Assembly (NCBI GenBank): GCA_016184225.1
Contig: JACPDA010000004.1
Location: 70,800 to 134,799, forward strand
Source of the DNA: Candidatus Daviesbacteria bacterium
GTDB taxonomy: Bacteria > Patescibacteriota > Microgenomatia > Daviesbacterales > UBA10151
Direction: 5' to 3'
DNA length: 64,000 nucleotides
The translations under genes were made by a program, and so were the position numbers. The number at the start of each line of letters is the position of its first letter. The stretch's first letter is position 1. This document shows positions 15,859 through 35,221 of this stretch, piece after piece. The notes under the pieces were generated by a model that was given only the letters and a program-made list of their open reading frames with translations, was not told the origin of the DNA and made no database searches.

Positions 15859-15949
15859 GTGAGTAAATATTGATTGGAGGTAAGTATAGTTCGGAATTTG
15901 AATTTTCCAATTAAAAGTAGCAAACTAAATTAGAGAGGGGGTGAGATAA

Positions 15950-16210: not shown

Positions 16211-16220
16211 AAAATTAAGG

Positions 16221-17309: not shown

Positions 17310-17320
17310 ATATTTAATTA

Positions 17321-19199: not shown

Positions 19200-19275
19200 G
19201 CGAATTTGTGGCTTTCAGGTATTGCTGGCGCAATTGTACACCAAACAAATCCCAAAAACAAGCCTAAAAGAGGAT

Positions 19276-19307
19276 CTAGTGACTAGAGTCAAGAGTCAAG
19301 GTATAAT
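19276..19307 (+). promoter_or_regulatory. CTAGAGTCAAGAGTC-family repeat ending in a TATAAT -10 box just upstream of tRNA-Ser(GGA)
   Basis: ctagtgactagagtcaagagtcaagg + tataat at 19302-19307, 10 nt before the tRNA 5' end. Confidence 0.4.
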
Positions 19308-19316
19308 ATGTGAACC

Positions 19317-19404
19317 TGGAGGGATCGCATAGTGGCCTAGTGCACGATCTTGGAAAGATCGCATATCCGCAAGGGTATCGTGGGTTCAAATCCCACTCCC
19401 TCCG
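19317..19404 (+). tRNA. tRNA-Ser (anticodon GGA)
   Basis: GGAGGGA acceptor; anticodon arm CGATC-TTGGAAA-GATCG; long variable arm; T-arm GTGGG-TTCAAAT-CCCAC. Confidence 0.75.
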
Positions 19405-19480
19405 CCTTAAATCTTACGAAGGAAGACATCTAACTAGTCATCTAAAGTTGGGATGAATAAATCCTGAAGTGACTTTTGAT

Positions 19481-20026
19481 TTAGATTCCGAATCTTTTAC
19501 CTAACTCTTTAGCCTCAAGAGTTCTTTTTATTAAAAAGTAAACATCCGCCGCGCCGTTATAAAATATTTCTTTGGTCGGATTGTATTTGGTCATCTCTTT
19601 GATGGCGTTTCCTAACTCCGGCTCTTCGGCAATTACCCTTTCAACTAACTTTCTATTATACCCAGCTTTGGTCTGATCTATATTACCACTCTTTAATTCC
19701 TTAATGCGGTCTTCTACGTATATAATCGTAGCATCGCTAGATACCCGTGGTAAATTTATACCATTTAATTCTGCCTGTCTTCTTAAGATTCGATAAGTAA
19801 ACAGCGCGCCTTGCGAATATGGTAGTTGCTCAATAGGGGACGTCCTATATCTAGTGTCAAGCGCCTGAGAAAGCACCGGATTTTGGTTTTGTAGAATATC
19901 ACGTTCCTCCTTCAAAGCCTTCAATGGATCTTGTGCAATTTCTCGGAGTGCTTGTTCAGCAGCTTCTTTGCTAACGGGCAACGGCGACGACTCTTTAATT
20001 GCTTCTGGTTTTGCTTCTTCTGGCAT
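19481..20026 (-). CDS. hypothetical protein
   Basis: 181 aa; no recognisable motifs. Confidence 0.35.
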   Translation of the reverse strand: MPEEAKPEAIKESSPLPVSKEAAEQALREIAQDPLKALKEERDILQNQNPVLSQALDTRYRTSPIEQLPYSQGALFTYRILRRQAELNGINLPRVSSDATIIYVEDRIKELKSGNIDQTKAGYNRKLVERVIAEEPELGNAIKEMTKYNPTKEIFYNGAADVYFLIKRTLEAKELGKRFGI

Positions 20027-20088
20027 AGTAATTTTGATTATCCCATACTATTTCCCTAACTACAAACTTTATGTTATATAATTAATAT

Positions 20089-20334
20089 ATGTTTAACTGG
20101 AATTTGCCAAATTTTGGGCCGGCTGTTTTCTTGCTCATTTTATGGGAGGCTTTTTGGAAAGGCATTGGCCTTTGGAAATCTGCCAAAAGAGGTGATACTC
20201 TCTGGTTTATCGCCATATTTTTAATTAACCTTTTTGGGATCCTACCCATCTTTTACCTTTGGAGAACCAAACAATTGAAGGGTGTAGTAATAGATTTCCA
20301 GAATTTCTTTAAGTCAAAGTTTAAAGGTAAGTAG
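20089..20334 (+). CDS. small 2-TM membrane protein
   Basis: 81 aa; two hydrophobic helices. Confidence 0.3.
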   Translation: MFNWNLPNFGPAVFLLILWEAFWKGIGLWKSAKRGDTLWFIAIFLINLFGILPIFYLWRTKQLKGVVIDFQNFFKSKFKGK

Positions 20335-20337
20335 AAT

Positions 20338-21630
20338 TTAAGCAGCCTTTGCTGTTCTGCCTAAAGTTGCAAAAACTGCCCAGGCTTGTGGGCTACAAGC
20401 GACCGGTACACCCTTTTCCCGATACTGTAGTAAATGACCTCTTTCCCTTTCAACTGCCACTAATTCCTTTCTTTTTAGCCTTCTTTCAAGTGCGAATGCC
20501 TTATTATCCAGACTCTCCGCAAATTCAATATCCCCATAATTTTCCACTGCCTTAGCAGCGATCAGCGTTTGGTGCAGCCAAACTGTCCCGTTGTGGTAGG
20601 CGCGAGCACCGTTTACCCTAAATTGGGAAGACAAACTGCTTCTCGTTCTTAAACCCCGCTCTGTATTCATATCCGGTTGCTTTAATCTGTCAATCACAAG
20701 CTTGGCATATTCCGGATCAATCACCTTAGCCCATAAAGCAATTACCGGATCATCAGCGATAAATTCAACTCGATTACCCTTGCCGTCTATCATAGGGGCA
20801 TAAGTTCCTAAATCAGGCGCAAAAAAGCGATTATGAAACTCTTTTTTGCCTCTTGCATAGCTGCCGTTAAGTTCTGCGGCAAAAGCGGTTTCCCCCATCT
20901 CTTTTGCCAATTCCACTCCCTCGCGCAGTGCCCAAAGGTAATAGCTATTGTTAGTCAGGTATTTATAGGGAGGTTTGGGAATTCTGCCTTTTTCGTCACG
21001 GTAAGCATCATTAGAATCTTTCCAGGTATGATTTAGTAGGGCATTTTTGTTTTGGGGATCAGACTCTATTAAGCCATCATTATCTAAATCTGCAATCTTA
21101 GTATCATGATGAAAAGCCGCTTTTACATGAGGCCACATCTCTTCCAGGTATATCTGAGCAGCCAGTTGATCTCTTGATGCAAGAGCTCGATGAACTACTG
21201 CCACTGAAATGTTAAATAAGGGCGTCGCATCCCCGGCTCCGTAGTAAACCATTCCAAGTCTACCATTTTCTAGTCTATATCCGGGCCAACCAATTTCAAT
21301 CATTTCTGCTAATCTCTGTTGAGGTGAATCTCCAGTATGAATTTCGTGAGCTATTTTTCCCTTATCTTCTTCAGTAAACGGATTACACTTTTTACCTTGA
21401 TAAGCAATTGCTAATCGCTGTGAAGTTTTAGCGCACTCAAGCAAGATAGGAAGCTCGCCGTTTTGCGGCTCTGATAAAGCCGTTATAATAGAAATGTAAG
21501 CATCTCTTCCGTAGTGAACGCCGCTAAAACGTCCTCCTCCGCTCGCTTTGATACCCAAAAAGTCGTCCACAATAAAGGGAAGTTCTTCTAGACACTCTGC
21601 TCTTAAAAACCTGATAAATTCAGGTGACAT
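20338..21630 (-). CDS. six-hairpin glycoside hydrolase (glycogen-debranching / GH63-like)
   Basis: (alpha/alpha)6-type blocks ...GMVYYGAGDATPLFNISV... and ...YHNGTVWLHQT... Confidence 0.4.
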   Translation of the reverse strand: MSPEFIRFLRAECLEELPFIVDDFLGIKASGGGRFSGVHYGRDAYISIITALSEPQNGELPILLECAKTSQRLAIAYQGKKCNPFTEEDKGKIAHEIHTGDSPQQRLAEMIEIGWPGYRLENGRLGMVYYGAGDATPLFNISVAVVHRALASRDQLAAQIYLEEMWPHVKAAFHHDTKIADLDNDGLIESDPQNKNALLNHTWKDSNDAYRDEKGRIPKPPYKYLTNNSYYLWALREGVELAKEMGETAFAAELNGSYARGKKEFHNRFFAPDLGTYAPMIDGKGNRVEFIADDPVIALWAKVIDPEYAKLVIDRLKQPDMNTERGLRTRSSLSSQFRVNGARAYHNGTVWLHQTLIAAKAVENYGDIEFAESLDNKAFALERRLKRKELVAVERERGHLLQYREKGVPVACSPQAWAVFATLGRTAKAA

Positions 21631-22387: not shown

Positions 22388-22826
22388 ATATTTCTAAAGC
22401 TTTTTTAAGAAGCACTTTATCCTGAGAAAAAGTTAATTGCCCTAGTGCCTCCTCCGGCTTAAACCAGCCTATGTCACTGACCTCCCAGTCGTGGTCTTTG
22501 ATATCACCGGAAACATATTTCATCAGAAAATAAGTCACCACTTTAAAGATTTTTTCTCCATTCAAGGTGTAGACATATTTAGAATAACCTACTTTACCAG
22601 TAATTTCAGCCACCACTCCGCCTTCTTCCTTAACTTCCCGCAAAGCTGCTTCCTCGGTGGTCTGTCCCGAGTCAATTAAGCCCTTAGGAAAACTCCAATG
22701 GTGATTTTGGGAATGCTGAGTTAGAAGCGCTTGACCTTTACTATTAAAAACTATTCCACCGGCCGAGAATTCTCGTTTCACGTTTTTTATTTCCTTTTTG
22801 GCGCCCCCAGCGGGATTCGAACCCAC
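22377..22826 (-). CDS. NUDIX hydrolase
   Basis: Nudix box ...TEEAALREVKEEGGV... Confidence 0.75.
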   Translation of the reverse strand: MGSNPAGGAKKEIKNVKREFSAGGIVFNSKGQALLTQHSQNHHWSFPKGLIDSGQTTEEAALREVKEEGGVVAEITGKVGYSKYVYTLNGEKIFKVVTYFLMKYVSGDIKDHDWEVSDIGWFKPEEALGQLTFSQDKVLLKKALEIYGK

Positions 22827-22873
22827 ATATCAGGATCCGGAATCCTGTGGTCTATCCATTAGCCTATGAGGGC
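22799..22873 (-). tRNA. tRNA-Arg (anticodon CCG)
   Basis: reverse complement GCCCTCA...CAGGA-TTCCGGA-TCCTG...GTGGG-TTCGAAT-CCCGC-TGGGGGC-G-CCA. Confidence 0.7.
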
Positions 22874-22874: not shown

Positions 22875-22964
22875 TGGCGGTGGGAGCAGGATTCGAACCT
22901 GCGCGAGGCTTACGCCTCGATTGGTTTTCGAAACCATCCGAATAGGCCTCTCTCGCATCCCACC
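22875..22964 (-). tRNA. tRNA-Ser (anticodon CGA)
   Basis: GGTGGGA acceptor; loop TTCGAAA; long variable arm CGAGGCGTAAGCCTCG; T-arm GCAGG-TTCGAAT-CCTGC; CCA encoded. Confidence 0.7.
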
Positions 22965-22969
22965 TCAAG

Positions 22970-23042
22970 CGCGCCCGGCGGGACTCGAACCCACAACCGC
23001 ATCGTCCGCAACGATGTGCACGATCCATTGTGCTACGGGCGC
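22970..23042 (-). tRNA. tRNA-Arg (anticodon GCG, unusual for bacteria)
   Basis: GCGCCCG-TA-GCAC-AATGGATC-GTGC-A-CATCG-TTGCGGA-CGATG-CGGTT-GTGGG-TTCGAGT-CCCGC-CGGGCGC-G; perfect 5-bp anticodon stem; no encoded CCA. Confidence 0.55.
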
Positions 23043-23108: not shown

Positions 23109-23666
23109 TTAACGATGCACGTTTTCCAGCGGTAAATGCTTCTGCAGCGATTCTGACCACTTTTCCATCCATGATTTATAAGGCTTTTCGTGAAATGGTA
23201 AAAAGCGGGCTACTGTCTTTTTTATCTTTTCTTCATCCTCCTTGCCTAACACTAACATCAGTTGAGTCGGAAACCTCAGTAGTGTTTGGATATGCAAAAC
23301 TTTTAAACCGTCTTTTTCCTTAAACCAAAACGAATCTAAAAAATGCCAGAAATAAAAATCCTCCCCAATGGTAATGCCTTGGGTAGAAATCTGGTAAGTG
23401 ATGTTATGTGGCGGGACAAAGGCCAAAACATAGGTCACAAAAGCAAAAGAAGCTATTACTCCAATCAGTAAAAAATCCTGCAGCCAAAAGAAAACAACCA
23501 AAACCAAAAATATGGCTAAAACAGCAATAGTAGTGTAATAAGAACGGTCTTTTTTTCTAAAAGGCCGGGCCGGCGCTTCCCAGGAAAGCAAAGTCTTAAT
23601 TTCCTCCGTTTCCATCATCTTGGGAGTAAAAAATTCCAGTGGATTTTGTTTTTTTTCTTTGGGCAT
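23109..23666 (-). CDS. hypothetical membrane protein (two central TM helices)
   Basis: 185 aa; hydrophobic core IAVLAIFLVLVVFFW...IGVIASFAFVTYVLAFV. Confidence 0.35.
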   Translation of the reverse strand: MPKEKKQNPLEFFTPKMMETEEIKTLLSWEAPARPFRKKDRSYYTTIAVLAIFLVLVVFFWLQDFLLIGVIASFAFVTYVLAFVPPHNITYQISTQGITIGEDFYFWHFLDSFWFKEKDGLKVLHIQTLLRFPTQLMLVLGKEDEEKIKKTVARFLPFHEKPYKSWMEKWSESLQKHLPLENVHR

Positions 23667-23842
23667 TTGTTTTTAGTTTAACTTTAAAAGAGTTTTATGT
23701 AAAGATGCGGTGCCTAGTCGACTATGTTGGAAATTATTTCAAGGAACAATTAGAGCAAATTGCTACTCCTTTTCCTCAAGTCAAACCGGCACTTGTTTAC
23801 TCTAAATTATAGCAGAAGTGAAGCCCAAAATAAGTTATGTAC

Positions 23843-24502
23843 TCACCACATTACCCTTGCTTGTACCAATTGTTGCAAATTAAATAGGTGTTGTGCAAAA
23901 TCTCGCCGTTCAACCGACCATATGCAATTTTGCAACCCACTGCCTACTCCAAAGTACACTTTTGCTCCAACTAGTTTACCATTTTTTACAAGAAGCGACG
24001 CACGATGCGTACCATCAATAATTGTTAATGGTGTACTTTGTTTGTTTGATGAAATTATTACAATATCATCGGTTTTTAAATCAGCAAGCTTTGACATAAT
24101 TTCTATCTTATTATGGTGGTGTACAACCACGGGAGGCTCATTATTTAAGCGATAACCCCTATTTTGTGATAGGTGCTTAGGTACATTAGCTACCTTGAAC
24201 GTACTACCTGTATCAAGATACCAGTCAAAGACTGGCAAGATAAATATACTGTCAACATCGATGCTTTCAATTTCGGCTTCAAACCAGTCTAAAGAACTTG
24301 GAATCTCATTTAGTATGGCGCTTCTACCATAAACGTTAAATATTAAATTTTCTCGCTCATTATTTTCTTGAGGGCTATTTAAATCGGGTTGTTCTATAAG
24401 CTTAATTTGCTCGCTTGTAAGACTGGGTTTCATACGAAAAAGCTCGCTTTTTAGCCAAGCAGCATGCATATGATGTTTTGTAGTTGGTTTAACTATTTTC
24501 AT
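23843..24502 (-). CDS. hypothetical protein with ParB/Srx-like DGxHR motif
   Basis: ...TPLTIIDGTHRASLL... Confidence 0.3.
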   Translation of the reverse strand: MKIVKPTTKHHMHAAWLKSELFRMKPSLTSEQIKLIEQPDLNSPQENNERENLIFNVYGRSAILNEIPSSLDWFEAEIESIDVDSIFILPVFDWYLDTGSTFKVANVPKHLSQNRGYRLNNEPPVVVHHHNKIEIMSKLADLKTDDIVIISSNKQSTPLTIIDGTHRASLLVKNGKLVGAKVYFGVGSGLQNCIWSVERRDFAQHLFNLQQLVQARVMW

Positions 24503-24628
24503 TAGCGGATATTATAGCGTATATACAGGAGAAAAATGCTAAAATAGTAGAAGTAATTCATAAAGGGGTAACTGCTTGCCATGAAGGCACACAGGACGCC
24601 ACAGGGGCTAAAAGGAGGCTGTTAGGTT

Positions 24629-25189
24629 ATGAGTGATAAACCAGTGAGAGAAAATATAAGACAGCATCAGGCATTTCTGGCATACAGCAGCATGTCTGAT
24701 CCTTCAGTTCAAAACATGTGGGAAACATGGGGGAAAATAGGGGGGCTTTCGGAATATAAAAGACCCTCATTTAGAACTTTGGAGTTATGGTGCACTAAAT
24801 ACCAATGGGTAGAAAGGTCTCAGGCCATCCATCAGGCGGCAAAAGAGGAGGCAATAAAGAAGGTTATCGCTAATCTAACAATGGGGAAAGAGGAAATTTT
24901 GGCGATCACCCGGGCTATCATGATCCGCTTTGGTCAGCAGTTGCAGGAAAATACACAAGGGAGACTTACCATCTCGGACTTTGAGAAGGCATGGAAAATT
25001 CAAAGGATAGAGCTGGGTCTACCAACAGAGATTGGAAACCAAGAGGTTGTTGTAAAAGACAGCTATGCAGGAGTAAGTGACGAGGATCTCATTTTGCAAC
25101 TTGAGACCTTAACAGCCAAATATAAACAGAGTTTGTTACTTCGTAATAAAGAAAGGCTTAATAAATCTGGCCACTTGCAATCGTCTTGA
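24629..25189 (+). CDS. hypothetical protein (island-encoded; only a weak resemblance to phage small terminase / DNA-binding proteins)
   Basis: 186 aa; lone plus-strand gene; no firm motifs. Confidence 0.3.
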   Translation: MSDKPVRENIRQHQAFLAYSSMSDPSVQNMWETWGKIGGLSEYKRPSFRTLELWCTKYQWVERSQAIHQAAKEEAIKKVIANLTMGKEEILAITRAIMIRFGQQLQENTQGRLTISDFEKAWKIQRIELGLPTEIGNQEVVVKDSYAGVSDEDLILQLETLTAKYKQSLLLRNKERLNKSGHLQSS

Positions 25190-25269
25190 CAAGTGGTATA
25201 GTTAAATTAACTTAAGCTCTCTGTAAGTGAAAGCAGGCTTCATGCCTTGCGCGAGGAAACTCGTCTAGC

Positions 25270-26052
25270 TTACAGGGGGCTTATTTTAGTAACATCAAAT
25301 TTATTCTTTGAGTGATAAAAGTTCTTGGGATAAATATCTGTATCGTAAATATCAACTAAATAACGTATTTTATCTCCGATAAATTTATAGAACCTCATAT
25401 CTTGCTTGATAAACGCCCTTTGTATTGCCCAATTTACATAATCAATAACTTGTAAACATGGTTCGCCTGATGGGGATTGTGGATTCACTTTAACTGAGGA
25501 TTCTACCTTTTTGCCCCATTTTTTCTCAAAGCTTTGGATTGCTTTTTGAATTGCATTTTCCAGCGGAATTTGACGGGTCTTACTGCCCCTCACGGCAAAG
25601 AAAATTTCATTATGTTTTGATAAGTGAATCTTATTTTCAAATAATTTACTTACTAAGTCGTCATAAAACTCACTCTCGTTTTTATGATGTTTTTTGTTAA
25701 AGATATTTTTAATTTTTCTTGCAACAAAAATTTCAGCTGTAAAATCCAGTTTAACGATTGTTCTATAGACTCTTTCACGAACTTCTGCGCAGTCATCCTT
25801 TGCATGGAAAGATACTGCGCTTTTTTGAAGAGAAGGAATACCCTCTAAATATTCATCGGAGGCAATTTCTTTCCTTAAATTTTCAAGTTTCTGCCTAATT
25901 GTCCTGGGATCATCTGTTTTAATAAACCCAAGAATAAGAATTTTAGAGACACCTTCTTGACCGACGATATAATTGCCATATCTATCGTAAAAAGTTGGAT
26001 CCCCGGATTCATCAACAAAAAAATATGTAGTTTTCTCCTGTAATTTTTTCAT
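25270..26052 (-). CDS. DUF3800-family protein
   Basis: N-terminal ...TYFFVDESGDP... and C-terminal ...CLQVIDYVNWAIQRAF... match the DUF3800 signature positions. Confidence 0.5.
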   Translation of the reverse strand: MKKLQEKTTYFFVDESGDPTFYDRYGNYIVGQEGVSKILILGFIKTDDPRTIRQKLENLRKEIASDEYLEGIPSLQKSAVSFHAKDDCAEVRERVYRTIVKLDFTAEIFVARKIKNIFNKKHHKNESEFYDDLVSKLFENKIHLSKHNEIFFAVRGSKTRQIPLENAIQKAIQSFEKKWGKKVESSVKVNPQSPSGEPCLQVIDYVNWAIQRAFIKQDMRFYKFIGDKIRYLVDIYDTDIYPKNFYHSKNKFDVTKISPL

Positions 26053-26110
26053 TTAAGTAAAAGTGTTAGTTAAAATAATCTAGATTCTTGACCAGTAATT
26101 TCCTCCTGGC

Positions 26111-27205
26111 TCACTTCTTCCTCAGGCGTTGTATATATTCTTTATTAGGATCTTTTATATCTAGGTTCCTATAAAATTTTTCTGTCTCAGAGTGAAATTT
26201 ATGTATTAGCGATACCATCCTCGGGTTACCTTTTATTCTCTCTTTTATTTCAAGTACCTTGGTGTTTCTAATAAATTCTGTAATCTCGTCTATTTTTTTA
26301 AAAAATGAATCTCCAGTTTCAGGTCGATCAGCATATAGCTTCTCTTTAGCTGCTTGAACAGCATCTTCAGGGGTAGATTGCAAAAACTCCTTACGAGCAG
26401 GCTTACTTTTAAGAATCTCCGCTAAATCTTTTTTTACATCATAGGCAGCAGATCTAATTCTTTCCTCTAGTACCCAATTAATAAATTTCTCATTACTTAG
26501 AATTTCTGGATTTTCTCTGGCTATGCTCTGAAGCTCCGAACTCTTAAAATATTCTTCAAATATGCTGAATTTTTTTAATTGTTCTTTTTCATCTAATCCA
26601 GCAAGTTCAGTAAGTTTAGGTAAGTAACCATCTCTCATCAATTCATAAGCCTTTAGTTGAATTTTGATAGCACTAGCTGTCATACCTACAATTGCGGCTA
26701 CATAATCTATATCCATTCTATTTTCATTAATCATTCTATAGATATAACTAGCCTTTTCATAAGGATCCCAGGGAGCTTTACCTTTTATATGTAGATTTCC
26801 AAGAAGTAAAAATAGATCTTCATCGCTTATCTTAGAAAGTATTACTTTAGCTCTAATTTTCCTCCAATTTTCTTTTTGTTCAGCTGGACTGTCTCTATAG
26901 ATGTACCTATAAGCACAAAGTCTACGGTTACCCTCTATCACCTGATTACCCATAACAAATACCTCTTCCATCAATCCACCATTTTTTCTGATATCATCAG
27001 CCAAAACTTTAGTTGAATCTAGTCTCCAGAGATTTTCTTCAATTTTAGTTTGATCCAAAGAATCTCCATATTTGCTCAACACATAATTCATTCTAGGGTT
27101 CTGTGGGTAATAATTTAACTCGAATATATCAATTTCCCTAATCTCAGTAGGTATTTTTCTGTCACCAATAACAATATTTTCTGAAGTGTCTGTTAAATCA
27201 GGCAT
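26111..27205 (-). CDS. ParB/Srx-fold protein of DGQHR/DUF262-like type (paralog A)
   Basis: ...VIEGNRRLCAYRYI... plus a shared block KAPWDPYEKASYIY. Confidence 0.45.
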   Translation of the reverse strand: MPDLTDTSENIVIGDRKIPTEIREIDIFELNYYPQNPRMNYVLSKYGDSLDQTKIEENLWRLDSTKVLADDIRKNGGLMEEVFVMGNQVIEGNRRLCAYRYIYRDSPAEQKENWRKIRAKVILSKISDEDLFLLLGNLHIKGKAPWDPYEKASYIYRMINENRMDIDYVAAIVGMTASAIKIQLKAYELMRDGYLPKLTELAGLDEKEQLKKFSIFEEYFKSSELQSIARENPEILSNEKFINWVLEERIRSAAYDVKKDLAEILKSKPARKEFLQSTPEDAVQAAKEKLYADRPETGDSFFKKIDEITEFIRNTKVLEIKERIKGNPRMVSLIHKFHSETEKFYRNLDIKDPNKEYIQRLRKK

Positions 27206-27206
27206 A

Positions 27207-28616
27207 TTAATGCAAAAGTTCGATTATTTCCTCCTTAGTCAAGTAACTACTTTCGTCAATTTTATCTGTATCTCCCTGTATTACTCTTGCTATGTCTTGT
27301 TTCTTGATTAATTTATCTTCGATAAAAAGGTCAATAGTATTTTGAGCTACTAACTTGATTATATTACATCTTTTATCCTGAGAAATCCTATGGATTCTAT
27401 CTTGTGATTGAAGATAGTCAACTAGATTAAAGGATCTATCTATATAGATAGCATTATTTGCAGCTGTTAATGTAATCCCCTCCCTTGCAGCTGCAGGATT
27501 AGCCACCATTACTCTGTAATCAGGATCTTCTTGAAATAACTGAATAAATTTATTTCTTTCTAATATTGGTATCTCTCCATGTATATTTAAAGAACCGAAT
27601 CCTCTATACCTATTCCTTAAAGTCTTTACATTCCCTACAAAGGACGACCAAATGATTACTTTTTCGTTCGATTCCATAATTTCTTTTAATAGCTCATCGA
27701 GTTTTGTAAACTTACAAGGTACTTCTTGATAGTCAGGTATTAACAAACCTGGATTACTTGCGACCTGAACAAGTCTTAGAAGCTTCTTGAGAATTGCTTT
27801 TGCTTCGTCAATAATTACTCTTTCGTCAGTATTTACAATTTCTATTAGTAGCTCTTCCTTTAACTTCCTATAGATCTCATTTTGCCTGGGTGATAGCTCT
27901 ACTAAAACTGTTTTATATACTTTTTCAGGCAACTCCAAGACATCATCCTTCAGTCTCCTAATAGATTTAGGTCTAATCTTCGTTTGAAGTTCAGCAAGCT
28001 TTTCTTTTGTTAAGCTGGAATCTTTGTAATTTTTTTTAAAAGCACCAAAATCTTCCCCTAAAGTTTTACCCCCATCCAAAAAATAGAATTGAGACCATAA
28101 ATCTATCGCCTTATTAGCTACAGGAGTTCCAGTTAAAATAATTCTTCTCGATACAAGTTCTCTCACTGCATTAATGGCTTTAAAAGTTTGGCTATCGGGA
28201 TCCTTTATGCGTTGAGATTCATCTAAAACTATTAAACATTTTCTAGCTTCAAGTAACAATTTAATAATATCTAGTTCTGCCTTAACTCCCTCGTAATTTA
28301 TAATGTACATGTTGGCAAAAGAGAGAAATTTATAACCTTTCGTCTTGCCTGCCCCTTCAATAACTACTGGAATTAGATAACTATGTTTCTTAATTTCGTT
28401 CTGCCAGACATACATCAATGTTTTGGGGCATATTATTAAAACTGCTTCTGACCTCTTTTGTTTAAGAATTGTTATAACTGCATCGATAACCTCTTTAGTT
28501 TTACCTACTCCCTGTTCGTCAAATAAGGCTGCCTCACTTTTCTGTACTAGAAAATTTGTAGCTTCTAATTGATGAGGAAGAGGAGATGTTTTAGCTTTAT
28601 ATAACGTTTTCTTCAT
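27207..28616 (-). CDS. SNF2/SWI2-family helicase (SF2 ATPase)
   Basis: motif I DEQGVGKT; motif II LVLDESQRIKD; III ILTGTPVAN; C-terminal helicase domain ...QSQDRIHRISQ... Confidence 0.8.
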   Translation of the reverse strand: MKKTLYKAKTSPLPHQLEATNFLVQKSEAALFDEQGVGKTKEVIDAVITILKQKRSEAVLIICPKTLMYVWQNEIKKHSYLIPVVIEGAGKTKGYKFLSFANMYIINYEGVKAELDIIKLLLEARKCLIVLDESQRIKDPDSQTFKAINAVRELVSRRIILTGTPVANKAIDLWSQFYFLDGGKTLGEDFGAFKKNYKDSSLTKEKLAELQTKIRPKSIRRLKDDVLELPEKVYKTVLVELSPRQNEIYRKLKEELLIEIVNTDERVIIDEAKAILKKLLRLVQVASNPGLLIPDYQEVPCKFTKLDELLKEIMESNEKVIIWSSFVGNVKTLRNRYRGFGSLNIHGEIPILERNKFIQLFQEDPDYRVMVANPAAAREGITLTAANNAIYIDRSFNLVDYLQSQDRIHRISQDKRCNIIKLVAQNTIDLFIEDKLIKKQDIARVIQGDTDKIDESSYLTKEEIIELLH

Positions 28617-29013
28617 AAGGTAAAAGCCTGTCTGGTACAGGTAAAATAATTAAATTTTCGTCGTTAACCCCCAGATCTTTAATGATCTTTTGAAACTTAT
28701 CCTGTACTGACATCGGGATCCCAAAAAAAACCTGATGCCCAATTTGGTTAGACCAATTTGTATCATTAGTAAAATCTTGGAGTTGCTCCAGTGTTCTGAC
28801 AGTTAAATCGTCTGCTGTTTTTGCTTCACCTATTGCTACACCGTTTGGTTTTATTCCAATTAAATCTGGTCTGTGTCTTAGAATTTTTGGAGGCAGCTTT
28901 AGCTTTATTGCCTCTACTTCGCTAGCACCTTCAAAACCCACTACTTCATAGCCTTCTAGATTCATTCGTCTCGCTATTAAATCTGCAATAAACTGATGAG
29001 CTTTCGATGCCAT
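28597..29013 (-). CDS. small PD-(D/E)xK nuclease-fold protein
   Basis: ...RPDLIGIKPNGVAIGEAKT... (D...E-x-K); 138 aa; overlaps the SNF2 gene by 20 nt. Confidence 0.4.
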   Translation of the reverse strand: MASKAHQFIADLIARRMNLEGYEVVGFEGASEVEAIKLKLPPKILRHRPDLIGIKPNGVAIGEAKTADDLTVRTLEQLQDFTNDTNWSNQIGHQVFFGIPMSVQDKFQKIIKDLGVNDENLIILPVPDRLLPYEENVI

Positions 29014-29024
29014 CCATTCGCCTC

Positions 29025-30035
29025 CTATTCTACTACCGACTTAGTCACTACAATTAACTTTTTAAGAAGATCTTTCTTTGCTGGTTCTTCTTCTCTAATC
29101 AAATTAATTTCATATTGCCTCAAGTTTTGAAGCTGATCAATTACTTTTTCAACATCTCTAAATAAGGGTGAAGCTACGTCAGGCTTTATAGTGGCTAATA
29201 AGTCCATTGCTGTTTCATATCCTTTATCCTTAAAGACTTTGGCTACTTCTTCATTAGAAAATATCTCTGGCAGATCTCTTACATCAATAGCCCTAGGAAT
29301 TCTTTCTTCCGCCACCCACCGACAAAAATCGTCTATTGAAAAAACTCTAGTTATTTCTAAATTGCGAACCTTCTTTTTGCCTACAAGCTCTACAAAATAG
29401 CTATATTTACTAACAGGATTATCTAAGTTATCTCCATACTTAGCTAAAAAGTGATCATGCATTATCTTAAATGCTGCTAAATCATTTTTTATTTCTGTCT
29501 CTTTACTTCTAGTCTCTCGTGCTAACCTTGCAGTGGGATAACCTTTTTGATTTAAGGTATATAAATATCTAGCTCTTTCATAAGGGTCCCATGGTTGTTT
29601 ACCGCCCAAGTGAAATTCGAGCCTAAGAAAAGCTATAACTTCCTCTGAAGTATCTGGGGGTAAAATTCGTGCTTCTATTGTCTGCCATTCAGTATCATGA
29701 GGGTACTTATCATATAACTCATCGAATATTAGTTTCCTGGTATTACCCTCTATGACTACATACTTCCCGTTTTTTTCAAAAACCCAGATTGGCTCAAGCA
29801 ACCCCGCTGTCTCTATAGACTCTTTGAGAGAATCATAGTTAGTTTTAGTTTTCACCCTTTGTCCAAGCTTTAATTTAGCCTGTGTTATTTCGTCGTCTTT
29901 TACTCCTCGTGCATACTCACTGTCAATTAAGAACTGGATTCTAGGATTTTCCTTATCTAACTCTATGAGTTCTAACGGAATTTTATGAAGGGGAGCTTTG
30001 CTTATAAGAGCTGTGAGGTATTTAGATTTACTCAT
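29025..30035 (-). CDS. ParB/Srx-fold protein of DGQHR/DUF262-like type (paralog B)
   Basis: ...VVIEGNTRKLIFDEL... plus the shared block KQPWDPYERARYLY. Confidence 0.45.
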   Translation of the reverse strand: MSKSKYLTALISKAPLHKIPLELIELDKENPRIQFLIDSEYARGVKDDEITQAKLKLGQRVKTKTNYDSLKESIETAGLLEPIWVFEKNGKYVVIEGNTRKLIFDELYDKYPHDTEWQTIEARILPPDTSEEVIAFLRLEFHLGGKQPWDPYERARYLYTLNQKGYPTARLARETRSKETEIKNDLAAFKIMHDHFLAKYGDNLDNPVSKYSYFVELVGKKKVRNLEITRVFSIDDFCRWVAEERIPRAIDVRDLPEIFSNEEVAKVFKDKGYETAMDLLATIKPDVASPLFRDVEKVIDQLQNLRQYEINLIREEEPAKKDLLKKLIVVTKSVVE

Positions 30036-30046
30036 AAGAATTCTTT

Positions 30047-31420
30047 TTATTTACGTTTACAAATGAGCAGGTATTCGTTAACTATATGGTTTCCTCGCCC
30101 ATTATGCTTAAAGCGAGATCCTTGGGCAGAGTGATTATAACCGTTCTTTTTATCTATGATCTCGTAATATTGACTGGCTATCTCTATTAGTTTATCGACG
30201 GGTTTCAATAAACTATTATCCGAATAGCTTATAGCCAAGGTTGCATCGGTGCTGGAAGATATTATACCAAACATTTCCTGAAATGCTTCTTCTACTTTGC
30301 TTGTATGGGAAAAGGAGGATTGATAACGATCATCTCTATAACCCCCCTTCACTGGTGTAGTTTTTGCCCGATCTAGAGTGAGCGTAGGATAATCATACCT
30401 AACCAAAGTCTCCGGGATATGGTAAAAGCGACTGTATTGTGCATTTGTGTAAGGAGGGTCAATATAAATTAGTTTCACCCCGTTTATTTCACCATCCTTG
30501 GCCATTTGTTTAACGAGATCTTTGTAATCATAATTATAAACTTTGTTTTCCCATCTTTTTTGAAGATAGACATTGCCAAAATCCAATAATTTATTTTGGA
30601 ACTCCGAGACAATCGATATGGCACGTTGCTTAAGTAATAAGTCTTGTGCGCTTAACGAATTTTGATTCAAATATTCTGCGAAGTGTCCACTACTATTGAC
30701 CGCCTTGCTCATGGCAAACATTAAACAACTTAGATACAGGGCTTGTTTGTCTTTGTCTGATATTTGATCTATTGCATATCGCAAACTATCTATTTCGGCG
30801 CACTGTTTAAGGCTAAAAAAGGTATTCGAGTAGTAGATGGCGAAGAGTAAATAGGGGAAGCTTTTTTTGGCAACCCTTCTTTTATCTATAAATTGTTTAC
30901 TAAAATAGGGTGCTAGTTTGTATTCATCGGAGGTAACGCCTCTGCCGTAAATGGGTATTTTGAGGAAGAACTTCTTGTACTCGTCAAAACTCCCCTTATT
31001 TACTAATCTTTGTTCATCTTCGATTGCTTTGCCAAATATATCAGTAAGCTGATCAAGATTTTTGTCGTAATACTTACTCAGAGTGTCATTAAAATCGTTT
31101 TCTCTAATTTGTTCATTAAATTGAAGTAGTGCCCTTGATATTACTGCGGAGTATCCTTGAATATCATTTGCAATAATTCTCGCCTTTGGCTTCATTGCGT
31201 ATCCAATTGAAGAAGTTCCAGCAAACAAGTCTAGCACTGTATCTCCTAAGTCTAAGTATTCCTCTAAGAGAGGTACTAACCAATTTAGTAGCCTTCTTTT
31301 ATTACCCATATATTTAAGGATTTGCATTTGAGGGTATTGACCGTATGAAAAGTTTTTAGCTAGTGAAACTTGTGGGAATAGTATTGCCTGTGGATATATA
31401 AAGGATGCCATTAGTTCCAT
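30047..31420 (-). CDS. D12-class (Dam-like) N6-adenine DNA methyltransferase with long inserted region
   Basis: YMGNKRRLL (D12 signature), motif I DLFAGTSS, motif IV IYIDPPY. Confidence 0.75.
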   Translation of the reverse strand: MELMASFIYPQAILFPQVSLAKNFSYGQYPQMQILKYMGNKRRLLNWLVPLLEEYLDLGDTVLDLFAGTSSIGYAMKPKARIIANDIQGYSAVISRALLQFNEQIRENDFNDTLSKYYDKNLDQLTDIFGKAIEDEQRLVNKGSFDEYKKFFLKIPIYGRGVTSDEYKLAPYFSKQFIDKRRVAKKSFPYLLFAIYYSNTFFSLKQCAEIDSLRYAIDQISDKDKQALYLSCLMFAMSKAVNSSGHFAEYLNQNSLSAQDLLLKQRAISIVSEFQNKLLDFGNVYLQKRWENKVYNYDYKDLVKQMAKDGEINGVKLIYIDPPYTNAQYSRFYHIPETLVRYDYPTLTLDRAKTTPVKGGYRDDRYQSSFSHTSKVEEAFQEMFGIISSSTDATLAISYSDNSLLKPVDKLIEIASQYYEIIDKKNGYNHSAQGSRFKHNGRGNHIVNEYLLICKRK

Positions 31421-31524
31421 GATAGCATGTATGGTGACTTAGTGAACATTAAAATACAATAAAACTGGTAAAATACAAGCCACCCAACATTTCGGGTAAA
31501 CTGTCTTTAAACATTAAAATTATC

Positions 31525-32502
31525 ATGAAAATAACGATATTTGATAATTTGTTTATCTTCCCTCATCGGGCAAAAGTTGTTAGCCTGGAAACAAAGAACT
31601 TCTTACATTTTTTGCTTGAAGATGAATACTTCCAAAACGAACAGAAGCAATTGAGAGAAAAATATGGCATTCCGAAAGACGGCTATCCACTTGATAAGCT
31701 TTACAAGGCGGTTGAAATCATAGACGAAGTGCCTGAGGGGCTAAGTGTTGAAAAGATGGATGAATTCCATAGATTCCTTTATGAAATTGATAGCTCTGAT
31801 GAAGTTATTTTTGCTCCGGAGGATAAAGCAGCAGTGATAGACAAAAATAAAGTGAAGCTGGATACATTTTATAGCTCACTTAATAAAACAGAACGATTAG
31901 CTTTTGAAGTGTATCTCAAGAAGTACAAAGCAAGAAAAGAAAATAATAGTAAGTATAGCAACCATAAAGAAGAGTTTAGCATTCATGCATTTATGAAGCA
32001 GATGGAAAATGATTTAGACAGGCTTGCTACTTACTATAATCTCCCTTCACATTTTGATACACAGTTTTTCCTGCTTATTGCTTTTAATGCGCTTCGAGAT
32101 ATCAGGCCGCAGCCATTCCTCTTTATGACAACCAATAGGATGACCATTAGGGATCTTCTCGAGGCGGTGCCGAAAAGCAAAGAGCCAATTGGCGCTTTGA
32201 TCGTATATGAACAGGTTACGAAAAATCAACTTACCAAATGGATTGAGAATAACTGGAAGATTCTAAAAGACCTCATGCAAGAGCTACCCAAAGTCTCATT
32301 TCCCAAAAGCACAATGCTTGATATTTCAAAAGAGATCGCTGACCTTCGAGATAGAAAACATAAGCTCTTTCGAGAAATTGCATCGGATCTTACAGACAAG
32401 TATCCCGACGACATGCGGGTTACTGATGAAACATGGGTAAAAGAAACATATAGACGATATAAGAATCGATTGCGAGCCTTCACAAAAAATAAGCAACAAT
32501 AA
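31525..32502 (+). CDS. hypothetical protein (island, plus-strand module)
   Basis: 325 aa; no motifs recognised. Confidence 0.35.
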   Translation: MKITIFDNLFIFPHRAKVVSLETKNFLHFLLEDEYFQNEQKQLREKYGIPKDGYPLDKLYKAVEIIDEVPEGLSVEKMDEFHRFLYEIDSSDEVIFAPEDKAAVIDKNKVKLDTFYSSLNKTERLAFEVYLKKYKARKENNSKYSNHKEEFSIHAFMKQMENDLDRLATYYNLPSHFDTQFFLLIAFNALRDIRPQPFLFMTTNRMTIRDLLEAVPKSKEPIGALIVYEQVTKNQLTKWIENNWKILKDLMQELPKVSFPKSTMLDISKEIADLRDRKHKLFREIASDLTDKYPDDMRVTDETWVKETYRRYKNRLRAFTKNKQQ

Positions 32503-32547
32503 GTTACCAAACCCGTTGTTTCCCGAATTCATTGTTTCCCAAACATC

Positions 32548-32850
32548 TTGTTATTTTTGCCTCTTTGTATCTGTGATAGCGTGCTTGGTAACATGAGCAT
32601 TAGCAAAGATTTTCCTCGCAACCTTTTTGCCACCTATGATATTGGGCTCTCTTCTGTATTGCTTAGTTTAGGTTTTGCTTTAGATTCTCTTGATAAAACC
32701 AATCCTCAAAAAGTTCAGTTTATCTTCCAAAAAAATAAGGGTTTAGCTGAAGCGATCCAAGCGTATTGGGCTAAAAGATTAACCCTTGAACCGCAGACAC
32801 TCTTGGCAAATCTCAAACTTTTAAAGAACAGGTTGTATTCAGATGAATAG
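32548..32850 (+). CDS. hypothetical small protein
   Basis: 100 aa; start overlaps the next ORF. Confidence 0.3.
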   Translation: MLFLPLCICDSVLGNMSISKDFPRNLFATYDIGLSSVLLSLGFALDSLDKTNPQKVQFIFQKNKGLAEAIQAYWAKRLTLEPQTLLANLKLLKNRLYSDE

Positions 32851-33028
32851 CTATGGCACGAAGGGCTGGCTAAATGAAGATCTTAAAAAAGAGATTAAGA
32901 AGGTTTTTGAGCCTCGTTATAAGAGATCCTTAACTGATGAGGAGGTAACTGTGATAGCCGAAAACCTGACAGAGGTTATGGAGGCCTTTTTGAAGATGAA
33001 ATGGAAACAAAAATATGGACAACCTTGA
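32843..33028 (+). CDS. hypothetical small protein
   Basis: 61 aa; translationally coupled overlaps on both sides. Confidence 0.25.
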   Translation: MNSYGTKGWLNEDLKKEIKKVFEPRYKRSLTDEEVTVIAENLTEVMEAFLKMKWKQKYGQP

Positions 33029-33377
33029 ACTTAATATTAATATCACCGGATTCTCAGTTGAAGTAAAACCGGTCATACGCCAAGACAATATCAAGGCCTT
33101 TGTGACCTGGATATTCTTAACAGAGTCAGGAGTAGTTAAGGTATATGGAGGCACCATCCGGATAAAACCATTCGGCAAAGACAATAAACTGATATTAACT
33201 TATGAACCGCCGGCTATAAAGACCAGGGGCGGCTACATCAAGGCTATGTTTATTGAAGATAAGCAGCTGTTTAAAACGCTCTGTGACTACACTATTAATT
33301 TGTACTGCAAGCTAACCGGCGAAGTAAGAGGAATACTATCGCCAGAAGATGTTAACATCGACGAGATACCTATCTAG
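33015..33377 (+). CDS. hypothetical protein, SpoVG-like fold?
   Basis: ...IKAFVTWIFLTESGVVKVYGGTIRIKPFGKDNKLIL... resembles the SpoVG pattern; weak. Confidence 0.3.
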   Translation: MDNLELNINITGFSVEVKPVIRQDNIKAFVTWIFLTESGVVKVYGGTIRIKPFGKDNKLILTYEPPAIKTRGGYIKAMFIEDKQLFKTLCDYTINLYCKLTGEVRGILSPEDVNIDEIPI

Positions 33378-33476
33378 CCATATAGTAACAATAGATAACT
33401 ATATAGTTACTGGTATCAATATAGTAACAAGAGTTAGTATCCAGTAAGGAGTAACTATACTTAAGTTAAGATCAAT
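33378..33476 (+). promoter_or_regulatory. cluster of four TATAGTWAC 9-mers (three direct, one inverted) immediately upstream of the serine recombinase gene; candidate recombinase binding / crossover site or operator
   Basis: tatagtaac (33381-33389), tatagttac (33403-33411), tatagtaac (33420-33428), gtaactata (33451-33459). Confidence 0.4.
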
Positions 33477-35033
33477 ATGAATATAAACGGCGAGCAATTA
33501 AAATATTTTATCTACTGTAGAAAATCCTCGGATGATGAGGATAGGCAAATTTTGTCAATCGAGAGCCAAATAAGAGAGCTTAAAGAGTACGCACTAAAGT
33601 ATAATTTACAAGTAGTAGATATATTAACTGAGAGTAAAAGCGCACATTATCCCGGGCGTGAGGTATTTGATGAGATGTTAGTGCATATTAAAAGTGGCGA
33701 GGCTAATGGTTTGCTGGTTTGGCATGCTAACCGTATTGCCCGCAACTCAAAAGATGGTGGTGAGGTTATCTGGCTTATGGATAGTGGAGTAATTGCGCAA
33801 ATTGATACCCCCGGTAAGCAGTATCTCAATACTCCTGATGATAAGTTTTATTTAAGTTTAGAGTTCAGTATGGCTAAAAAGTCATCGGATGATTTAAGTG
33901 TTGTAGTTAAGCGAGGTATAAGACAAAAATATGAGCGCGGTGAATATCCCAACTTTGCCCCTATTGGTTACATCAATACAAAAATAAATGGAGTAACTAA
34001 TATCTCCCCTGATCCGGAGCGCAAAGATTTGGTTATTAAACTCTTTAACGAATACTCAACCGGCAAGTATTCTCTTGGTCAAATGGCTGAACTGATATTC
34101 ACCTGGGGACTTCGGACCCGCAGAGGTAAGCCTGTTAGTAAATCGCATCTCCACCGGATCCTTAAAAATCCGATATATTACGGTGTTTATGAACATGCAG
34201 GAGAGTTACACAATGGAACATACGAACCTCTTATCTCAAAACGTCTGTTTGATGATCTACAGGTAGTCTTACATAATAAGGCCAAGCCGAAAAAGATTAA
34301 CAACGACTGGCCATATGCTGCGCTTTTGAAATGCGGATGCGGATGCGGAGCTTCAATCATCTTTGAAACCAAGCGCAAGTATTATAAGAAGACTGACCGC
34401 TGGGCAGAATATACTTATGCCCGCTCAAGTAAAAGGTGTAGTAAGTGTACTCAAAAGGGAATAGATCTGGCTGAACTTGAGCGTCAGCTGGATGAAAAAA
34501 TTGCCCCTGTTACTATTGATGAAGAAACATGGCGTTTAGGTATTAAACTGCTCAATACCAAGTATGAATCAGAGGCAAAGCAACGGGCACAGGTGGTGGA
34601 AAGCCGGCAAAGGCAGTATCAAAGGTTACAAGGCGAGCTGGATGGCTATTTCAAGATGCGGGCCCGGGAGGAAATGACTGCTGATGAGTTTACCACCAGG
34701 AAAAAGGCCATCTTTGATGAGCAGGCAAAATTAAAAGAAAAAATAGATGACGGATTAAACGGCCAGCGCAGCTGGTTGGAACTTGCTGAAGATTTCTTTA
34801 CAACAGCCTATCAGGCACGGGAGATGCTAAATAGTGATGATTTAGAGGCAAAACGCAGGGCAGTTGCAAAGATCGGTTGGAACGTCTTGCTAAAAGACGA
34901 AAAGCTTGTCTGGACGTACCAAAAGCCTTATGACATACTGCTTAAACCTCAATACCGTTCTGACCTGCGGAGGCGGCAGGATTCGAACCTGCGAGCCCTT
35001 TCGAGCCAATGGTTTTCAAGACCATCTCCATAA
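33477..35033 (+). CDS. large serine recombinase (resolvase catalytic domain + recombinase domain + zinc ribbon)
   Basis: YCRKSSDDEDRQILSIESQ (nucleophile Ser), ...LLVWHANRIARN..., CGCGCGASI...C zinc ribbon; the last roughly 22 codons run into the tRNA-Ser on the opposite strand. Confidence 0.85.
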   Translation: MNINGEQLKYFIYCRKSSDDEDRQILSIESQIRELKEYALKYNLQVVDILTESKSAHYPGREVFDEMLVHIKSGEANGLLVWHANRIARNSKDGGEVIWLMDSGVIAQIDTPGKQYLNTPDDKFYLSLEFSMAKKSSDDLSVVVKRGIRQKYERGEYPNFAPIGYINTKINGVTNISPDPERKDLVIKLFNEYSTGKYSLGQMAELIFTWGLRTRRGKPVSKSHLHRILKNPIYYGVYEHAGELHNGTYEPLISKRLFDDLQVVLHNKAKPKKINNDWPYAALLKCGCGCGASIIFETKRKYYKKTDRWAEYTYARSSKRCSKCTQKGIDLAELERQLDEKIAPVTIDEETWRLGIKLLNTKYESEAKQRAQVVESRQRQYQRLQGELDGYFKMRAREEMTADEFTTRKKAIFDEQAKLKEKIDDGLNGQRSWLELAEDFFTTAYQAREMLNSDDLEAKRRAVAKIGWNVLLKDEKLVWTYQKPYDILLKPQYRSDLRRRQDSNLRALSSQWFSRPSP

Positions 35034-35052
35034 ACCGCTCGGACACGCCTCC
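34968..35052 (-). tRNA. tRNA-Ser (anticodon UGA)
   Basis: GGAGGCG acceptor; ATGGT-CTTGAAA-ACCAT; long variable arm GGCTCGAAAGGGCTCG; GCAGG-TTCGAAT-CCTGC. Confidence 0.7.
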
Positions 35053-35057
35053 TTAAG

Positions 35058-35141
35058 CGGTGGGTACAGGATTCGAACCTGTGTGACATTTCTGCCAGCA
35101 GTTTAGCGAACTGCCCCCTTAAGCCACTCGGGCAACCCACC
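35058..35141 (-). tRNA. tRNA-Ser (anticodon GCU)
   Basis: GGTGGGT acceptor; GCAGT-TCGCTAA-ACTGC; long variable arm; CAGG-TTCGAAT-CCTG. Confidence 0.7.
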
Positions 35142-35221
35142 AGCTTGCCTCATTTTACCAGAACCCAGTTTATATCTCCATTAGTTACATAACTTGATAC
35201 GGCCGTTGCATGTTATGTAAA

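Follow-up and report, generated by a model that had tools for sequence, protein, structure and literature searches.

Why does the gene of a large serine recombinase in a Candidatus Daviesbacteria chromosome end inside a host tRNA gene? The DNA analysed here, called the window, is a 64,000-nt stretch of contig JACPDA010000004.1 (positions 70,800 to 134,799; assembly GCA_016184225.1) from this member of the Candidate Phyla Radiation (CPR; Microgenomates). The recombinase gene closes a block of accessory genes and runs antisense into tRNA-Ser(UGA). The best overall explanation, with a probability of about 0.8, is an integrated element whose integrase gene crosses its own attachment site, attP, with a satellite-like way of life and defence-type cargo. 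The element is a serine-integrase island at a tRNA 3′ end, and the favoured reading of it is a phage satellite of its CPR host. On sequence comparison, its status as an 11,260-bp integrative element of the chromosome is very likely.

The case for integration comes from relatives that lack the island. An earlier annotation made from the letters alone (the sequence-only reading) had proposed a mobile element with a large serine recombinase integrated at tRNA-Ser(UGA), to be abandoned if all relatives shared the same gene order. When the 3′ half of this tRNA gene was used as query against one genome per species, three Candidatus Daviesbacteria assemblies were recovered: L008 (JAQTPP010000005), L009 (MFDN01000005) and L010 (MFCP01000020). 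They keep the order tRNA-Arg/Ser/Arg, membrane-protein gene, tRNA-Ser(UGA), tRNA-Ser(GCU), ComF at 70-80% nucleotide identity. SmpB is also in conserved order in L008 and L010, and FtsJ and NUDIX are likewise part of the island-free synteny. Nothing lies between the membrane-protein gene and tRNA-Ser(UGA) in any of the three; the island is absent from all of them, and the proposal stands. The flanks consist of ordinary core genes (FtsJ, glycoside hydrolase, membrane protein, ComF, SmpB), of which the membrane-protein gene is syntenic and 75-78% identical in the empty-site genomes. An exact-protein look-up of ComF gave no record, and that of the membrane protein returned only window-identical contigs, with no empty site.

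In L008, the segments matching window 23654-23710 and window 34966-35054 adjoin and overlap by 5 nt, TGCGG. This overlap therefore places the ends at 23706-23710 and 34966-34970 and gives an element of 11,260 bp from core to core (23706-34970), not the roughly 12 kb from tRNA to tRNA first supposed. A tRNA gene bounds the island only on the right, at tRNA-Ser(UGA); on the left it ends beyond a core gene, away from the tRNA-Arg/Ser/Arg cluster. On the tRNA strand the core reads CCGCA and consists of the discriminator G flanked by the final two bases of the acceptor stem and two bases of the trailer. With the core at the very 3′ terminus of tRNA-Ser(UGA), the tRNA stays whole and there is nothing to rebuild. 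The sequence-only reading had the element reconstituting the tRNA, which was mistaken: the gene is unsplit host DNA with the crossover at its last bases, 98.9% identical over 89 nt to the empty-site copy in L008, and a 32-nt probe from its 3′ end (up to three mismatches) finds the tRNA itself and no displaced fragment at the far end. An 18-nt repeat (22886-22903 and 34976-34993) had also been put forward as an att core. The identity exists, and as a core it was rejected in favour of TGCGG: the repeat is T-arm/acceptor sequence common to all Ser tRNAs here, occurs in four tRNAs, and lies inside intact tRNAs rather than at the island ends.

Other expectations of that reading were borne out. Thirteen plausible genes lie between the two tRNA groups and include the accessory set that it listed (two ParB-like proteins, SNF2, a D12 methyltransferase, DUF3800 and small ORFs, open reading frames, of no assigned function). 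The anticipated compositional shift is seen as well, with a G+C fraction of 0.367 inside the island against 0.407 and 0.420 in the flanks and the lowest value, 0.346, in the cargo block.

The recombinase is, by its domains and att layout, a large serine integrase, and unidirectional catalysis is predicted. It matches the PHROG integrase family phrog_95 at 3e-59. Its PF00239 resolvase domain spans residues 11-156 (model positions 2-144 of 145), and PF07508 and PF13408 are present; across an alignment of 55 sequences R15, K16 and S17 are nearly invariant and C286, C290 and C324 invariant. The length, 518 aa integrated and 531 aa in the reconstructed free form, falls inside the 400-700 aa of large serine recombinases, and the junctions share only TGCGG, without long direct repeats at the ends. 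The AlphaFold2 (AF2) model of a 90%-identical homologue, P0002, has a predicted local distance difference test score (pLDDT) of 86, a folded core to about residue 494, and helices at 349-396 and 402-428. Another homologue, P0033, looks like a methyltransferase-integrase fusion and was set aside as a deletion derivative or an assembly chimera on a 2.5-kb contig.

Could the recombinase instead drive an invertible or rearranging segment, or the region be ordinary hypervariable host DNA? The presence of a serine recombinase, and nothing further, would suit such a view, which the exact empty sites in three relatives already refute. A repeat finder detects no inverted repeats at the island ends, the architecture is that of a full large serine integrase, and the protein belongs with integrases and not invertases, both by its phrog_95 match and by its 61-95% identical homologues at tRNA 3′ ends. 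The probability left to this alternative is close to nil.

The overlap with the tRNA arises because the integrase gene spans attP and reads whatever lies past the crossover. Residues 1-498 are encoded by the element (to 34970), and residues 499-518 plus the stop codon (34971-35033) by the antisense of the host tRNA. The sequence-only reading had recognised that the last 22 or so codons are antisense to tRNA-Ser(UGA), whose 3′ end faces the island; they number 22 and begin with L497 (34965-34967), ahead of the stop at 35031-35033. The predicted attP junction reads ...CCGTTCTGACC TGCGG TGCCTAGTCGAC... and the predicted attB junction ...TTTTATGTAAAGA TGCGG AGGCGGCAGG.... When the free form is reconstructed, the frame continues as ...YRSDLR-CLVDYVGNYFKEQLEQIATPFPQVKPALVYSKL-stop, the tail being the P′ arm now stranded at the left end of the island.

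Such a junction is found on L001, a 115-kb ENA contig (ERZ27284378 k139_285137) that also carries P0002. At L001 1408-1558 the last 44 nt of an integrase gene, TGCGG and the sequence of window 23711-23817 are contiguous; this is exactly the junction expected from a circularised window island. In the window, L001, L012 and L027 the integrase frame continues through the core and on into the P′ arm; for other tail types, intact ORFs in the attP configuration occur (P0002, P0026, P0069 and others). Homologues that end in non-tRNA sequence share the tail motif [LW]R[CRG]x[VLCFY]-[DNEH]x[VI][RG][TN]x[FYW], down to 36% identity, and are read as genes in the attP configuration. On these comparisons it is probable that the reading frame crosses attP.

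Exchange between attP and attB within the core would detach the last 33 codons, leaving them at attL, and fuse 20 tRNA-antisense codons in their place. Excision, with a putative directionality factor, would restore the 531-aa enzyme and its conserved tail. The swap could thus signal the state of the element, free or integrated, to the enzyme, a functional role that is put forward tentatively and is, on balance, doubtful. Selection on the tail is indicated by its first 17 codons, which between the window and L001 show seven synonymous and no nonsynonymous differences (P ~6e-5 for 7/7 under neutrality), while later codons diverge freely. Comparisons among the window, L001 and L012 give 7:0 and 5:3 synonymous to nonsynonymous, mostly at third positions, and this concentration therefore argues for constraint on the protein rather than on the DNA.

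The overlap of ORF, attP and tRNA may also be a by-product of compact packing, with a functionless tail conserved as P′ half-site DNA; this is a serious contender at somewhat less than even odds. Integrated-form tails are arbitrary tRNA-antisense peptides of variable length, and the conserved stretch of about 17 codons overlaps the ~25-bp half-site expected of a serine integrase. The AF2 core stops near residue 494, before the core sequence, so that the tail lies beyond the folded core, where pLDDT is below 50. Third-position differences run counter to a DNA-level explanation, however, as does the reach of conserved residues to codon 17 (51 bp), past a typical half-site, and the amino-acid motif persists among homologues that are just 36-40% identical.

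Several observations concern the stranded P′ arm itself. The host base that precedes the attL core completes ATG-CGG and opens a 35-aa ORF (MRCLVDYVG...SKL; window 23705-23812) in frame with the stranded tail. Gene callers annotate this ORF in three Logan contigs (L005-L007), and the attL of L012 likewise reads ATG-CGG. The independent Logan assemblies L005, L006 and L007 (SRR12113425, SRR12113426 and SRR12113429) all break at window 23809, which is the end of the P′-tail ORF and the point where similarity to L001 stops; the shared breakpoint hints at co-existing element variants with a common P′ arm and different sequence beyond it. Next to the arm, the C-terminus of the 219-aa ORF (CIWSVERRDFAQHL; window 23885-23926, minus strand) resembles the free-form tail of P0033 (CAFEKIRTDFAQNL; also L027 5155-5196), a short resemblance that may be chance.

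The same arrangement recurs throughout the integrase clade beside tRNA-Ser (UGA, GCU and probably CGA) or tRNA-Tyr(GUA). Integrase homology stops exactly at the first base of the tRNA in 10 metagenome loci (integrases 61-95% identical): at tRNA-Ser(UGA) in L011, L012, L013, L018 and L021, at tRNA-Ser(GCU) in L017, and at tRNA-Tyr(GUA) in L014, L015, L023 and L024. The junction peptide follows the target, YRSDL|RR for Ser and YRSN(V/M)|SRG for Tyr. An antisense signature of the T-arm/T-loop, [DE]SN[PL]..., occurs in the last 70 aa of 68/110 full-length homologues, against a background of 0.03 per 70 residues, and in a 2.9-Mb genome the gene of a homologue with 37% identity has a 42-nt overlap with tRNA-Ser(GCU). 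Left ends agree as well. The 7.7-kb L012 element (3809 to 11470), at tRNA-Ser(UGA), has the same core and the same P′ tail there, and the 7.5-kb L023/L024 element, at tRNA-Tyr, has a related tail and the analogous core GTCCAGG. Separately, the integrase of the tRNA-Tyr element in L016 (1682-1862) runs into a partial T-arm-like remnant, with the intact tRNA-Tyr 96 nt further on; the remnant may be the scar of an earlier integration or excision.

Phage large serine integrases and those of integrative and conjugative elements (phiC31, Bxb1, A118, SPbeta, TP901-1) share with this enzyme the resolvase and recombinase domains and a zinc ribbon with a long coiled coil, a very short attP/attB identity (5 bp here), the lack of long direct repeats and an integrase gene beside attP. 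They differ in that the target here is the 3′ end of a tRNA gene, and in that the ORF crosses attP, which makes the C-terminus depend on integration state. No description of a serine integrase with a tRNA-gene target or an attP-crossing ORF was found in a limited literature search. Myxophage Mx8 reportedly integrates at the 3′ end of a tRNA gene, and in mycobacteriophage BPs, whose recombinase is of the tyrosine type, integration-dependent immunity is said to rest on a gene spanning attP, there the repressor, which loses a C-terminal degradation tag.

For tyrosine integrases, int genes that cross attP are described in Mx8 and SSV (PMC4383910, PMC6070905), while serine integrases were not known to target tRNA genes according to the Islander paper (PMC4383910). 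Mx8 IntP/IntX offers the closest precedent: its int coding sequence contains attP, and int acquires a different 3′ end upon integration (PMC6070905, PMC4383910). By sequence, the island likewise has its attP core within the integrase ORF and a C-terminus predicted to be replaced on integration. The enzyme here is a serine integrase, however, and the swap is short (33 aa to 20 aa) and lies beyond the folded core. An SSV-type archaeal element gene also spans attP, with its product altered by integration (PMC4383910), but there the tyrosine-recombinase int gene is split in two. Like an Islander-type tDNA island, the element carries its integrase and has an intact tRNA gene at one end; unlike one, it has no more than 5 bp in common between its two ends, with no displaced tDNA fragment opposite the tRNA, and uses a serine rather than a tyrosine integrase.

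What kind of element the integrase serves is indicated by its backbone. Beside the P′ arm lies a 186-aa protein that, by family and position, is a small terminase subunit (TerS). All 32 tested members of its narrow, Microgenomates family match phrog_6299. Homologues from Microgenomates siphovirus-like phages, 61% identical in prophage L035 and 66% identical in IMG/VR contig L038, stand between a ParB-methyltransferase fusion gene and the large terminase subunit gene, TerL (phrog_38, 1e-68 and 3e-70), followed by portal and head/capsid genes. BLASTP against the Terminase_2 TerS of L030 and phmmer against the PDB gave no match. When all 13 island ORFs were compared with PHROGs, TerS was the only virion-related match, with no TerL, portal, capsid, tail or lysis gene.

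The L001 element has the same backbone as the window (P′ arm, terS, 325-aa ORF, DUF5659, 61-aa and 120-aa ORFs, integrase; 71-94% amino-acid identity) and entirely different cargo, namely metabolic genes. L034 repeats the left-end block of P′ arm and terS, and its contig stops before any integrase. L030 combines an unrelated TerS (Terminase_2), a helix-turn-helix (HTH) protein and a primase with a clade integrase in the attP configuration (P0026). Candidates for regulators or a directionality factor are the DUF5659, 61-aa and 120-aa ORFs that precede the integrase.

A site-specific integrase, a length of 11,260 bp within the ~7-15 kb range of satellites, its own terS and no virion genes are all found in the island. 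Integrase and terS without virion genes, at 7-11 kb and with swappable cargo, form a satellite signature, and a satellite-like element is therefore favoured. On this gene content the island would most likely spread by redirecting the packaging machinery of a helper phage, a reading given just short of an even chance. Phage satellites (phage-inducible chromosomal islands, including those of Staphylococcus aureus, PICI/SaPI) and Prochlorococcus tycheposons are likewise small (7-15 kb) site-specific islands with integrase, terS, no virion genes and defence or other cargo. Tycheposons are located at tRNA genes; terS is present in some, and a minority rely on large serine recombinases (bioRxiv 10.1101/2020.12.28.424599). 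The island differs from both in having no recognisable primase/replication module or master repressor and in its CPR host; no report of phage satellites in Patescibacteria was found in the literature.

One alternative is a decayed prophage that kept integrase and terS by chance, gained defence genes and is no longer mobile. It would fit the tandem prophage remnant in L001 that uses the same att system, the frequency of orphan integrase 3′ remnants (L001 P1, L026, L027, L028, L029), the failure to recognise replication genes in the island and an invariant population across six assemblies. Yet integrase, terS, the 325-aa ORF and the small upstream ORFs are intact and 71-94% identical to those of the differently loaded L001 element, so that a maintained backbone fits better than random decay. 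The layout of terS and integrase without virion genes also recurs in L001-B and, with an unrelated terS and a primase, in L030, and L034 echoes the left-end terS block only. Decay is accordingly judged unlikely.

A packaging-free mode of spread is more improbable still. It would make the island an integrative mobilisable or transformable cargo island, spread by competence or another route, with the TerS homologue in some other DNA-binding role. In its favour, the related L012 and L023 elements share the att sites and integrase module although terS is undetectable in them, competence genes are encoded in CPR genomes, and ComF adjoins the locus. Against this, members of the TerS family elsewhere occupy the position immediately upstream of TerL in phages, and TerS stands beside attP in at least three elements (window, L001, L034).

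Orphan attP-like junctions, in which a 15-48-codon integrase 3′ remnant, the core and a P′ tail follow one another without an integrase upstream, bear on the history of satellite-like elements at these sites. They occur at L001 1408-1558 (P1), L026 9731-9949 (adjoining a histidine operon), L027 2613-2909, L028 1087-1260 and L029 3-160. Elsewhere on L001 (11453-11578) the P′ tail behind an intact integrase is a divergent one that belongs to the next, different element, and the protein P0181 has two P′ tails in series. By gene content the L001 neighbour (P′ tail, 165-aa ORF and TerL-like gene, no portal or capsid genes) is a clear prophage remnant on the same att system. The orphan junctions suggest tandem accretion toward the tRNA with decay of older, tRNA-distal copies. 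Such accretion would need recombination between an incoming attP and a resident attR-like site. Canonical serine integrases recombine attP with attB only and not with an attR-like site; canonical behaviour therefore does not explain it. In the L030 region 9494-21089, terS, the HTH protein and the primase precede P0026, and GmrSD, Eco57I/MmeI-type restriction-modification genes and a KAP NTPase follow it. No tRNA occurs within 21 kb, and the region is a free replicon or else a further tandem array with a defence island on it.

More broadly, the clade might be a widespread one, ranging from CPR to multi-megabase genomes and specialised on the 3′ ends of class II tRNAs (Ser, Tyr), whose free-state-only C-terminal motif acts as an integration sensor tuning directionality or stability, and which drives Daviesbacteria satellites accreting in tandem with helper-type prophages at the same tRNA. 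This wider picture is speculative and rather doubtful.

The cargo consists of the D12 methyltransferase, a four-gene cassette (ParB, 138-aa protein, SNF2, ParB; window 26111-30035) and DUF3800. The two ParB-like proteins are paralogues. The cassette occurs in the same order on the alphaproteobacterial plasmids Mesorhizobium pMSNZP2077NSa and Roseomonas p2-AD3 (L032 5059-8984; L033 5040-8975), with SNF2 37-41% and ParB-like proteins 27-33% identical (first ParB 29-33%). There it adjoins DGQHR, radical-SAM and ATPase genes and not a D12 methyltransferase. No description of the cassette was found in the literature, and it has the appearance of a hitherto undescribed effector module combined with varying DNA-modification modules. 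PADLOC gives domain-level matches of the helicase to ZorD, DpdE and DrmD and weak matches of the ParB-like proteins and methyltransferase to PD-Lambda-5_A/B and PDC-M38A; the ParB-like protein had no match among phage records.

The cargo thus shares an N6-adenine methyltransferase, two ParB-like proteins and an SNF2 helicase with methyltransferase-linked defence (PD-Lambda-5, DISARM DrmD, Dpd DpdE, Zorya ZorD), but has the full gene set of none of these, PADLOC finding no DrmA/B/C, DpdA or ZorA/B among the island proteins. The best guess from gene content is that methyltransferase, cassette and DUF3800 would act as a modification-linked anti-phage or anti-restriction module. Related elements with the shared integrase module carry other cargo, including a DpnII-type endonuclease, an SDH protease with DUF6941 and a LexA-like HTH protein, or metabolic genes.

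Several results weigh against the explanation as a whole. All six assemblies of this population carry the island with identical sequence, and neither an excised circle, a same-population empty site nor a packaged copy was observed. The reconstructed attP and attB show a dyad symmetry of at best 10/24 positions, no better than chance. IMG/VR yielded neither integrase relatives nor the attP junction, and a junction-peptide protein search, in which only five candidates were scored, gave no intact integrase ORF with the CLVDYVG tail. The P0002 tail has no confident AF2 structure and gives no hint of function; the tail region doubles as the P′ half-site, so constraint on the DNA could account for some of its conservation. 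A Foldseek search of the TerS model against the PDB returned nothing below E = 1, and the TerS call therefore rests on the PHROG profile and synteny. No replication module or repressor typical of satellites was recognised in the island, and the cargo ParB and methyltransferase matches to known defence systems are weak (E 1e-3 to 1e-8).

Unidirectional integration into genomes is achieved chiefly with serine integrases, whose sensing of direction is under active study. If the reaction of the enzyme itself rewrites its C-terminus throughout a natural clade, direction sensing would become testable with the 531-aa and 518-aa forms. Exact attP/attB pairs are supplied for CPR organisms, which are without genetic tools. 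The island also points to CPR bacteria, a group about whose mobile elements little is known, as hosts of satellite-like islands that bear terS and mobilise defence cargo, for example the four-gene ParB-SNF2 cassette also present on rhizobial plasmids; if so, phage satellites may here be recognised for the first time in the Candidate Phyla Radiation. The clade, finally, contradicts the older generalisation that serine integrases avoid tRNA genes (PMC4383910).

Table 1. Features of the island and its flanks, in window coordinates.
Feature	Position	Strand	Basis or remark
tRNA-Arg(CCG)	22799-22873	minus	ARAGORN
tRNA-Ser(CGA)	22875-22964	minus	ARAGORN
tRNA-Arg(GCG)	22969-23042	minus	ARAGORN
Host core gene, 185-aa membrane protein, left flank outside island	23109..23666	minus	weak Pfam DUF5673 match
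attL core TGCGG	23706-23710	.	L008 junction overlap; same core in L012
P′ arm of attP, stranded last 33 codons + stop of free-form integrase (CLVDYVGNYFKEQLEQIATPFPQVKPALVYSKL*)	23711..23812	+	in frame across core
219-aa ORF, no assigned function	23843..24502	minus	no Pfam, PHROG or PADLOC match; absent from L001 element
Small terminase subunit (TerS) homologue, 186 aa	24629..25189	+	phrog_6299; phage synteny
DUF3800 protein	25270..26052	minus	PF12686; PADLOC DUF3800_VII at 2e-31
ParB-like protein, 364 aa, cassette gene 4	26111..27205	minus	phrog_3694; weak PD-Lambda-5_A, PDC-M38A
SNF2-family helicase, 469 aa, cassette gene 3	27207..28616	minus	Pfam SNF2-rel_dom + Helicase_C
138-aa protein, cassette gene 2	28597..29013	minus	no family match; similar-sized protein in same place in plasmid cassettes
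ParB-like protein, 336 aa, cassette gene 1	29025..30035	minus	weak ParB_N; phrog_3694, phrog_4715
D12-class N6-adenine DNA methyltransferase	30047..31420	minus	PF02086 at 2e-20; PADLOC MTase_II at 1e-33
325-aa backbone protein	31525..32502	+	71% identical in L001 element; no family match
DUF5659 backbone ORF	32548-32850	+	DUF5659 match
61-aa backbone ORF	32843-33028	+	47-92% identical in L001, L011, L012, L013, L014, L023, L030
120-aa backbone ORF	33015-33377	+	conserved in L001, L011, L012, L013
Large serine integrase, integrated form, 518 aa	33477..35033	+	Pfam Resolvase + Recombinase + Zn_ribbon; phrog_95
attR core TGCGG	34966-34970	.	L008 junction overlap
tRNA-Ser(UGA), intact host gene, B′ arm of attB	34967-35052	minus	ARAGORN
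tRNA-Ser(GCU)	35057-35141	minus	ARAGORN

Promoter and terminator scans gave nothing exceeding shuffle expectation. A sigma-70-like match for the membrane-protein gene, TTTACA-17-TAAACT (window 23675-23703, minus strand), lies in the B arm directly beside the attL core. No terminator-like site occurs between tRNA-Ser(UGA) and the integrase 3′ end, and read-through of the tRNA operon would be antisense to the integrase.

Two further regions of the window may be variable. Directly after the 3′ end of tRNA-Ser(GGA) (19318-19406) lies a 670-bp insertion (19407-20076) with one 181-aa ORF (19481-20026, minus strand) that matches no family. The insertion is absent there in L008 and L009, and L010 has 1.77 kb instead, including the P′-tail-like peptide NLRCLFENIRTELA (L010 990-949, minus strand); the locus may be a second Ser-tRNA hotspot with element remnants. 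Window 8683-15858 is a second low-G+C stretch (0.35-0.39), free of integrase or phage genes, that encodes two Fic/DOC proteins, a GNAT acetyltransferase, a GDSL lipase, a serine hydrolase and several proteins of no assigned function, and is possibly another variable region.

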